NCBI GenBank assembly: GCA_963813715.1
Contig: CAWFAK010000005.1
Coordinates: 1,024,001 to 1,088,000, forward strand
Source of the DNA: an uncultured Planctomycetaceae bacterium
GTDB lineage: Bacteria; Planctomycetota; Planctomycetia; Planctomycetales; Planctomycetaceae
DNA: 64,000 nucleotides
Reading direction: 5' to 3'
Position 1 is the stretch's first letter, and every line of letters begins with the position of its first letter. The notes below the pieces were generated by a model that worked only from the letters and a program-made list of their open reading frames with translations, ran no database searches and had not been told where the DNA came from. Below, one piece after another: positions 62,663 through 62,889 of the stretch. Position numbers and translations under genes: made by a program.

Positions 62663-62889
62663 AAGGTGAATCGGCGCATTTGATGGAGACGACCGTGGGG
62701 AAGCTTGCGAAGCGTAGCGGAGCAAGGTTCCCCACGGCGGCCGGCGGTAGATCGTCCGCCCTCAGGTCCAAGAAGACCGTGGGAGAGCTGGATCGCCGCC
62801 GGTCTCATGAGATCAGCCCGAACAGCCGTCAGAGCCGTCGTGGCGCCAGTCGCCGCTTGAGCTCGCATTCGCAAGGACGGGACATCGTC
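62663..62889 (+). ncRNA. Predicted IS110 bridge RNA
   Basis: 5' hairpin (CCGTGGGGAA/TTCCCCACGG); target-binding loop 62741..62802 with guides GTCCGCCCT and GGGAGAG; donor-binding loop 62811..62886 with guides ACAGCCG(T) and CAAG; ends approximate. Confidence 0.85.

Follow-up and report, generated by a model that had tools for sequence, protein, structure and literature searches.

The window, i.e., the whole stretch of 64,000 nucleotides (64 kb) analysed here, carries at its very end an insertion element of the IS110 family, which is composed of a recombinase gene, a short right end and a left end with a putative bridge RNA directly upstream of the gene. The following features, all located on the plus strand, were assigned to the element and its flanks:

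62641..62647, + strand: left target half (LT) CCCGGCC, the final 7 nt of the REP 5' arm preceding the core
62648..62649, + strand: core dinucleotide CT of the left junction (..CT/TGTATG in nine of nine copies)
62650..63865, + strand: body of the IS110-family element, 1216 bp, with the left end containing the putative bridge RNA, the recombinase gene and a 22-nt right end
62650..62657, + strand: right donor half (RD) TGTATG.., containing the putative -10 box TATGTT (62652-62657)
62693..62737, + strand: 5' stem-loop with 16 pairs and a conserved 13-nt apical loop (62709-62721)
62739..62804, + strand: target-binding loop (TBL), consisting of an outer stem, an internal loop with left and right target guide, and an inner hairpin
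62739-62753 with 62791-62804, + strand: outer stem of the TBL
62754..62762, + strand: left target guide (LTG) GTCCGCCCT in the register of the earlier note (family-standard alternative 62755-62763)
62765-62768 with 62775-62778, + strand: inner stem GGTC/GACC of the TBL
62781..62787, + strand: right target guide (RTG) GGGAGAG, which corresponds in 7/7 positions to the reverse complement of CTCTCCC (core plus right target half)
62788..62789, + strand: handshake positions CT of the TBL, of which C, the first base, may form a pair with G at donor position 7 once the strands are exchanged
62817..62881, + strand: donor-binding loop (DBL), consisting of an outer stem CCC(G)/(C)GGG, an internal loop with left and right donor guide, and an inner hairpin
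62817-62820 with 62878-62881, + strand: outer stem CCCG/CGGG of the DBL
62822..62828 (with T to 62829), + strand: left donor guide (LDG) ACAGCCG(T), identical in 7/7 positions to the terminal 7 nt of the right end
62832-62835 with 62861-62864, + strand: inner stem GAGC/GCTC of the DBL
62865..62875, + strand: right donor guide (RDG), of which CAAG (62872-62875) pairs with CT plus TG and CAT (62866-62868) allows a discontiguous pairing with ATG of the RD
62876..62877, + strand: handshake positions GA of the DBL, of which G, the first base, may form a pair with C at target position 7 once the strands are exchanged
62890..63843, + strand: recombinase gene encoding a 317-aa protein in which a RuvC-like DEDD domain is combined with a Tnp domain containing the catalytic serine
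63847..63852, + strand: putative -35 box TTGAAA of the right end, whose 17-nt distance to the -10 box arises solely by circular joining of the ends
63859..63865, + strand: left donor half (LD) ACAGCCG, the terminal 7 nt of the element
63866..63872, + strand: right core CT (63866-63867) and right target half (RT) CTCCC (63868-63872), within the REP 5' arm

The ends of the element became evident from its copies. The genome harbors nine full-length copies with 94-99.4% identity and exactly identical ends: All nine start with CT followed by TGTATGTTG and finish with ACAGCCG, CT and CTCCC, and differ in the flanks beyond. In the window copy, the left flank CCCGGCC with CT is found at positions 62641-62649 and the right end ACAGCCG with CT and CTCCC at positions 63859-63872. 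The flanks of all nine copies belong to a single family of REP hairpins, of which 18 uninterrupted sites of the type CCCG[GA]CCCTCTCCC are present in the genome. The dinucleotide CT occurs at both junctions in each of the nine copies, while the empty sites contain a single CT before CTCCC. The element thus shows the shared core, the lack of any duplication beyond the core and the site-specific insertion which are characteristic for IS110 elements. Based on the empty REP sites and the junctions of the copies, CCCGGCC-CT-CTCCC was established as target, CT as core and ACAGCCG-CT-TGTATG as donor junction. An alternative register of the junction, with the second CT as core and CCC as RT, was discarded in view of the empty sites (CCCTCTCCC in 18 cases versus CCCTCCC in three). 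A strong hairpin, CCCTCTCCC..GGGAGAGGG, is present in the empty sites, its 5' arm containing the core and the right target half. Breaks in the contigs of four public runs are found at 62644-62646 and 63872-63879, as is expected at the ends of a repeated element.

Several further repeats surround the element. A larger composite repeat, containing GGGACGGGAC.. motifs and a block with ..GTTGTTTCACCGAGAAA.., encloses the REP hairpin (62560-62640 and 63873-63925) and recurs beside most copies (loci L002-L009) and beside many empty sites. Approximately 90 bp upstream of the element, at 62483-62562, lies an inverted repeat of the type GGCACCAAGG..CCTTGGTGCC, after which GTGGTGGTT is found. Guides and flanks of three other IS110 elements from Planctomycetaceae (L068, L074 and L078; the right flank of L068 is cut by the contig end) resemble this repeat with the pattern ..TTGGTG(C/T)-CT-T(G/T)GTGG. 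It may represent a second REP family and the target of a sister element, with CG instead of CT at the core position here. A short tandem run of GTCCAAAG/GTCCAAGG units is found at 62370-62412, and similar runs lie beside the copies C5:1206638, C16:500606 and C16:393481. Two pairs of copies are located only 0.3-0.6 kb apart in the same orientation within neighboring REPs (C16:500606-503825 and C5:1206638-1209474).

The product of the recombinase gene matches the Pfam families PF01548 (3.2e-25) and PF02371 (3e-17), i.e., the pair of DEDD and Tnp domains characteristic for IS110 recombinases, and scores 229.9 bits against the NCBIfam equivalog NF033542 'IS110 family RNA-guided transposase' with its cut-off of 140. 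It aligns over its full length to the solved recombinases IS621 (8wt6, E 3.1e-42) and ISCro4 (9t56, E 2.9e-42). The catalytic residues of IS621 are D11, E60, D102, D105 and S241 (PMC11208158), to which D12, E56, D98, D101 and S237 (followed by G238) align, so that all five are present. With its open frame from 62890 to 63843 the recombinase of the window copy is intact, and the earlier note was right in describing it as having the DEDD residues and the catalytic serine and no frameshift. As the earlier note proposed, this copy may also be active and reprogrammable. Two further frames cover the region, an antisense frame of 585 aa on the minus strand (62059-63816), which spans the whole element, and a frame of 396 aa, which extends the recombinase upstream to 62653. 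Both were taken as by-products of the high G+C content because relatives align only from 62890 and the extension covers base-paired RNA.

For the comparative analyses relatives were collected by a scan with one genome per species, which yielded 37 loci, and by searching 398 Planctomycetaceae genomes, which yielded 30 further loci and a match at E <= 1e-40 in 85 genomes (57 of the 275 high-quality ones). IS110 elements of this kind are thus common in Planctomycetaceae. Near-identical relatives are labelled Planctomycetaceae.

The stem and guide coordinates and sequences of the earlier note were re-read from the sequence and every one of them was correct. The note had proposed folding combined with covariation over homologous left ends as a check, and the whole fold was supported in this way. 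Folding of the single sequence (z = -3.27) recovered the 5' hairpin, both stems of the TBL and the inner stem of the DBL. An alignment of the two loops was established from 34 non-identical left ends with 45-100% protein identity, which takes in Cupriavidus, one MAG of the Elusimicrobiaceae and one of the Nitrospinaceae; L039, L044 and L047 (distant, with mis-placed anchors) and L079 (long insertion in the inner hairpin) were excluded from the structure alignment. Within the two loops 92.8% of 878 cells form standard pairs, compared with 31-46% when the 3' partners are slid by one to three columns, and 17 of 28 pairs show changes on both sides. Helix 1 of the TBL (14 pairs, 93.3% paired) contains 11 compensatory pairs and helix 2 three out of four; for the inner helices of the DBL compensatory changes were found in three of six pairs with 97-98% of the cells paired. 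The outer stem CCC/GGG of the DBL is invariant and therefore uninformative, being neither supported nor contradicted by covariation. The 5' hairpin was analysed in a separate alignment (A2) of 16 left ends, in which 92.2% of the cells are paired (37-55% when slid) and 14 of the 16 pairs are compensatory. None of 500 shuffles reached any of five measures for the two loops and none of 500 was as high for the 5' hairpin, counts which overstate the significance because the relatives share ancestry; more reliance can be placed on the slid controls and on the number of pair types. A predicted left-end non-coding RNA that has a 5' stem-loop and, after it, a pair of stem-loops with internal loops, as is typical for the IS110 group, is thus supported by covariation across 34 left ends for the two loops and 16 for the 5' hairpin.

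The apical loop of the 5' hairpin (62709-62721, ..AGCGTAGCG..) is nearly invariant among the relatives from Planctomycetaceae, while the stem below varies freely. A near copy of AGCGTAGCG occurs in a Nitrospinaceae MAG (L041). The loop is a conserved single-stranded motif. The search of the left end against Rfam revealed no family at threshold. A weak match to sX15, a small RNA of Xanthomonadaceae, extends over 62728-62842 on the minus strand (28.3 bits versus a cut-off of 55, E 0.043) and lies antisense over the target-binding loop; it may be due to chance, or sX15 may itself belong to an IS110 left end.

For the comparison of guides and DNA, the guides were taken from fixed columns of the alignment and the flanks from the individual loci. 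The RTG could be compared in 29 of the 34 relatives, namely those with an identifiable right end; L082, L088 and L092 were left out since they have no downstream match to the LDG, L068 since it ran off the contig, and L077 was removed because its downstream match lies outside an element end. In 25 of these relatives, all five non-core RTG bases match the reverse complement of the element's own right flank without a mismatch, and 17 different RTGs occur; the remaining ones show one mismatch in two cases and three in two others (L091 and L041). None of the 740 non-cognate pairings was exact, with a mean of 1.5 of 5 bases. Because of this difference the RTG of 7 nt can be regarded as real and general in the clade. 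The earlier note had described a naturally 7-nt right target guide, which is correct, yet it is a property of the whole clade and not peculiar to the window copy. For some IS110 orthologues an RTG longer than that of IS621 is described (Durrant et al., 2024; PMC11208160). The occurrence of 17 different RTGs on one conserved scaffold shows a natural reprogramming among the relatives. In the window copy the first loop is complementary to both target halves and the core, with a perfect RTG (7/7) and an imperfect LTG (6/9).

The second loop is complementary to both ends of the element. Among the relatives, the LDG occurs in the variants ACAGCCG (20), ACGGTTG (5), ACAGTCG (3), ACAGCCT (1) and ACAGTTG (1), and its identity with the LD is partly given by construction because the right ends were found by searching for the LDG 7-mer of each element. 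As an independent check, the 7-mer is in every case followed immediately by CT and a flank in agreement with the own RTG. The core positions of the LDG in the window copy are TC instead of CT. When the left end (240 nt) was shuffled 20,000 times with its dinucleotides preserved, 5.8% of the shuffles contained the RTG 7-mer, 1.9% the LDG 7-mer and 0.125% both. The pairing of the RDG would be discontiguous, similar to that described for IS621 (PMC11208160). Since the RD doubles as -10 box it is almost invariant, and the two informative relatives compensate in the RDG: L090 with the RD CGTATG has the RDG ..CGAG and L044 with the RD TATGTG has ..CATAAG. Handshake positions were assigned according to the concept presented in PMC11208158. 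The first handshake base of the TBL pairs with LD position 7 in all 30 relatives with known right end, including a compensatory change in L032 (A, with T at LD position 7), and that of the DBL pairs with LT position 7 in 23 of the 28 relatives with known left flank. In the window copy neither of the two bases pairs with its own cognate DNA, in agreement with the published rule (PMC11208158). Covariation between guides and DNA, a check also proposed by the earlier note, was found for RTG, LDG, RDG and the handshake bases and was weaker for the LTG.

For the LTG 24 of the 34 left ends, those with at least 9 nt of left flank, were compared with three registers allowed and three picks set by hand. 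Cognate pairs match at 4.96 of 7 non-core positions on average, compared with 3.23 in 550 non-cognate pairings, 9.3% of which reach 5. Informative are only the LT positions 3-7 (matched in 0.71-0.92 versus 0.40-0.72), positions 1-2 being uninformative. At the nine occupied sites the LT occurs as five different 7-mers, each a variant of the REP, and none of these is a full match to the LTG; the lone site in the genome that matches LTG and RTG perfectly is an empty non-REP site and is uninformative either way. The mismatch tolerance of the left guide that the earlier note had proposed is plausible and in line with the lack of a full match at the nine sites, but within the clade only LT positions 3-7 co-vary at all. 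Moreover, the flank of each copy does not provide a clean test of its LTG, because bridge RNAs can act in trans between copies and because co-variation is limited to these positions. The imperfect match may reflect a real tolerance of mismatches, guidance in trans by the RNA of another copy, a role of the REP hairpin (compare 10.64898/2026.03.19.712850) or a recombination with only half of the guides matched (compare 10.64898/2026.08.31.748434). IS621 itself is described as tolerating mismatches poorly (PMC11208160, section 8).

The register of the LTG has to be considered as well. At 62754-62762 the guide of the window copy matches in six of nine positions (four of the seven non-core positions plus CT), while a shift by one base to the right to 62755-62763 (TCCGCCC+TC) results in five of seven non-core matches, with the core contacted imperfectly (U-G, C-A) by TC. 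The shifted offset, directly after the conserved GATCG, gives the best match in 13 of 24 relatives, and GATCG and the inner stem are equally far apart throughout the alignment. The register of the earlier note places CT opposite the core, which corresponds to a strong preference of IS621 (PMC11208160, section 8), and L040, L065 and L077 with the same loop end ..CCCT(C/G)A also have CT one base earlier. The scorable relatives with this loop end are split, L065 being best at the 62754-type register and L040 at the shifted one. We consider the shifted register a serious option at somewhat less than even odds.

A putative promoter is split over both ends of the element. When the ends are joined in a circle, TTGAAA of the right end is separated by 17 nt from TATGTT of the left end (62652-62657), an arrangement described for IS621 (PMC11208160). 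Of the 26 relatives examined, 20 have a spacer of 17 nt, single ones have 18 nt and 13 nt, and in four rows of Cupriavidus no box was recognized by the rule used; TATGTT serves as putative -10 box in 17 of the 22 relatives with a scorable promoter. As far as the sequence tells, the element thus has the promoter rebuilt across the circle junction that is known from IS110 elements. In the linear copy the scan revealed no sigma-70-like promoter and no intrinsic terminator. The split promoter predicts a start of transcription near 62664, and as the donor loop ends (62881) only 8 nt before the start codon, the bridge RNA probably is the leader of the recombinase mRNA, too. Left end and gene are covered by contigs of three RNA libraries, where a carry-over of DNA is possible, and this coverage is no proof of transcription. 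The Cupriavidus loci L036-L038 and L059 are distant relatives with the same RTG GGGAGAG and the right flank CTCTCCC; they are without the 5' hairpin, and the inner hairpin of their target loop is longer. With the -35 box only about 10 nt away from TATGT at the junction, a different arrangement of their promoter must be assumed.

Taken together, we consider it highly probable (approximately 0.93) that the region is the left end of an IS110-family insertion sequence which is complete and encodes a canonical bridge RNA immediately before the recombinase gene. The earlier note had recognized the IS110 bridge-recombination architecture, and structural as well as guide-DNA covariation agree with it in architecture, guides, core and enzyme. 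As decisive support for the bridge RNA we regard the covariation in the relatives. Following the homology with IS621, the element would excise as a circle, whereby the joined ends would bring the -35 box of the right end to a distance of 17 nt from the -10 box of the left end. The bridge RNA, probably together with the recombinase mRNA, would then be transcribed from about 62664 and fold into the 5' hairpin and the two stem-loops with internal loops. Its first loop would read the REP target, with the left guide directed to the bottom strand ..GCC-CT and the 7-nt right guide to the top strand CT-CTCCC, and its second loop would read the joined element ends ACAGCCG-CT-TG.ATG. A recombinase tetramer with DEDD residues and serine would exchange the strands at the common CT core, assisted by one handshake base per loop.

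Two other explanations were weighed. The element could be a true bridge-RNA element of which the window copy and its family in this genome are nothing but immobile fossils, so that the guides would record a past specificity. No two of the nine copies are identical (at most 99.4%, i.e., differences of 0.6-6%) and recent movement is thus unsupported. Six of them contain a premature stop, and the window copy carries a private exchange of C to T at 62858 which turns a G-C pair of the inner DBL stem into G-U. In addition, no circle junction was detected in the contigs of four runs, an absence which in contigs is no proof. However, three of the nine copies (the window copy, C8:69254 and C16:393481) have the full frame with all five catalytic residues, and stems and guides of the bridge RNA are intact in the window copy. 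Each of the six interrupted copies differs from it by one to three single-base indel columns, which may be errors of the draft assembly, and 18 studies of soil and rhizosphere contributed 20 public runs with near-identical sequence, including six RNA libraries. We therefore hold the fossil state to be unlikely, though by no means negligible. That the region is merely a structured 5' leader or part of the longer frame (ATG at 62653, 396 aa) with guide matches arising by accident in a GC-rich repeat, for which the frame open from 62653, the linear copy without promoter or terminator and the missing Rfam family at threshold could be quoted, is hardly credible, since the compensatory changes keep base pairs and not codons, the guides vary together with the flanking DNA across relatives, the proteins of the relatives align from residue 1-9 of the 317-aa protein starting at 62890, and both 7-mers (RTG and LDG) coincide in only 0.125% of the shuffles.

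On the basis of all sequence features considered, the element is an ordinary, complete member of the IS110 group. The family, the bridge RNA and the targeting of REPs have already been described and thousands of orthologues surveyed, and little is added to the basic biology. Bridge recombinases are of practical interest as programmable tools for DNA insertion, and a fully mapped orthologue together with about 30 naturally reprogrammed relatives informs the design of guides with respect to the length of the right guide, the left positions that are read and the handshake bases. A full-text literature search for 'bridge RNA' combined with 'Planctomycet' revealed no paper, while supplementary tables from 2024 may list this clade.

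In the IS1111 group, which has the same enzyme family, the guide RNA is encoded downstream of the recombinase gene. A membership of the present element in that group was rejected: Only 22 nt (63844-63865) follow the stop codon and the structured RNA is located upstream of the gene. The recombinase of ISCro4 (9t56) is as close as that of IS621 (E 2.9e-42) and was compared by protein only. ISPpu10 and ISPpu9 of Pseudomonas putida likewise have all copies in one REP family, with the target beside or within a GC-rich stem-loop (10.64898/2026.03.19.712850; PMC12288879). For ISPpu10 a 5' extension is described to form the stem-loop (10.64898/2026.03.19.712850), whereas here the core is located inside the 5' arm of the hairpin.

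A further comparison was made with IS621 from Escherichia coli (IS110 group; structures 8wt6-8wt9), whose protein is related over the full length and has the same five catalytic residues. Both elements have in common the RNA encoded in the left end, the 5' stem-loop, the target loop, the donor loop, the CT core and the LDG of 7 nt, and furthermore the discontiguous RDG, the handshake positions, the split promoter and the REP target, as far as these are described for IS621 (PMC11208160; PMC11208158). The predicted RNA is longer (about 220 nt versus 177 nt in IS621) and the host is a soil planctomycete. The main differences concern the reading of the target: The RTG comprises 7 nt (core plus 5) compared with 4 nt in IS621, the geometry of the target guides is approximately 5 + CT + 5 instead of 7 + CT + 2, and only LT positions 3-7 co-vary in this clade compared with seven positions in IS621. 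The natural sites mismatch the LTG at non-core bases, at co-varying as well as distal positions, whereas poor tolerance of mismatches is described for IS621.

Within the Planctomycetaceae clade the reading of the target may have shifted from the left to the right guide, so that the site would be chosen mainly by the 7-nt RTG and the REP hairpin, a suggestion that we put forward tentatively and regard as rather doubtful. If it holds, the clade would represent a natural bridge recombinase with a relaxed left half, reading five informative left positions, CT and five right positions with a left guide that tolerates mismatches in nature. Such a reading would be akin to the half-match behavior and the stem-loop gate which have recently been reported for IS621 and ISPpu10.
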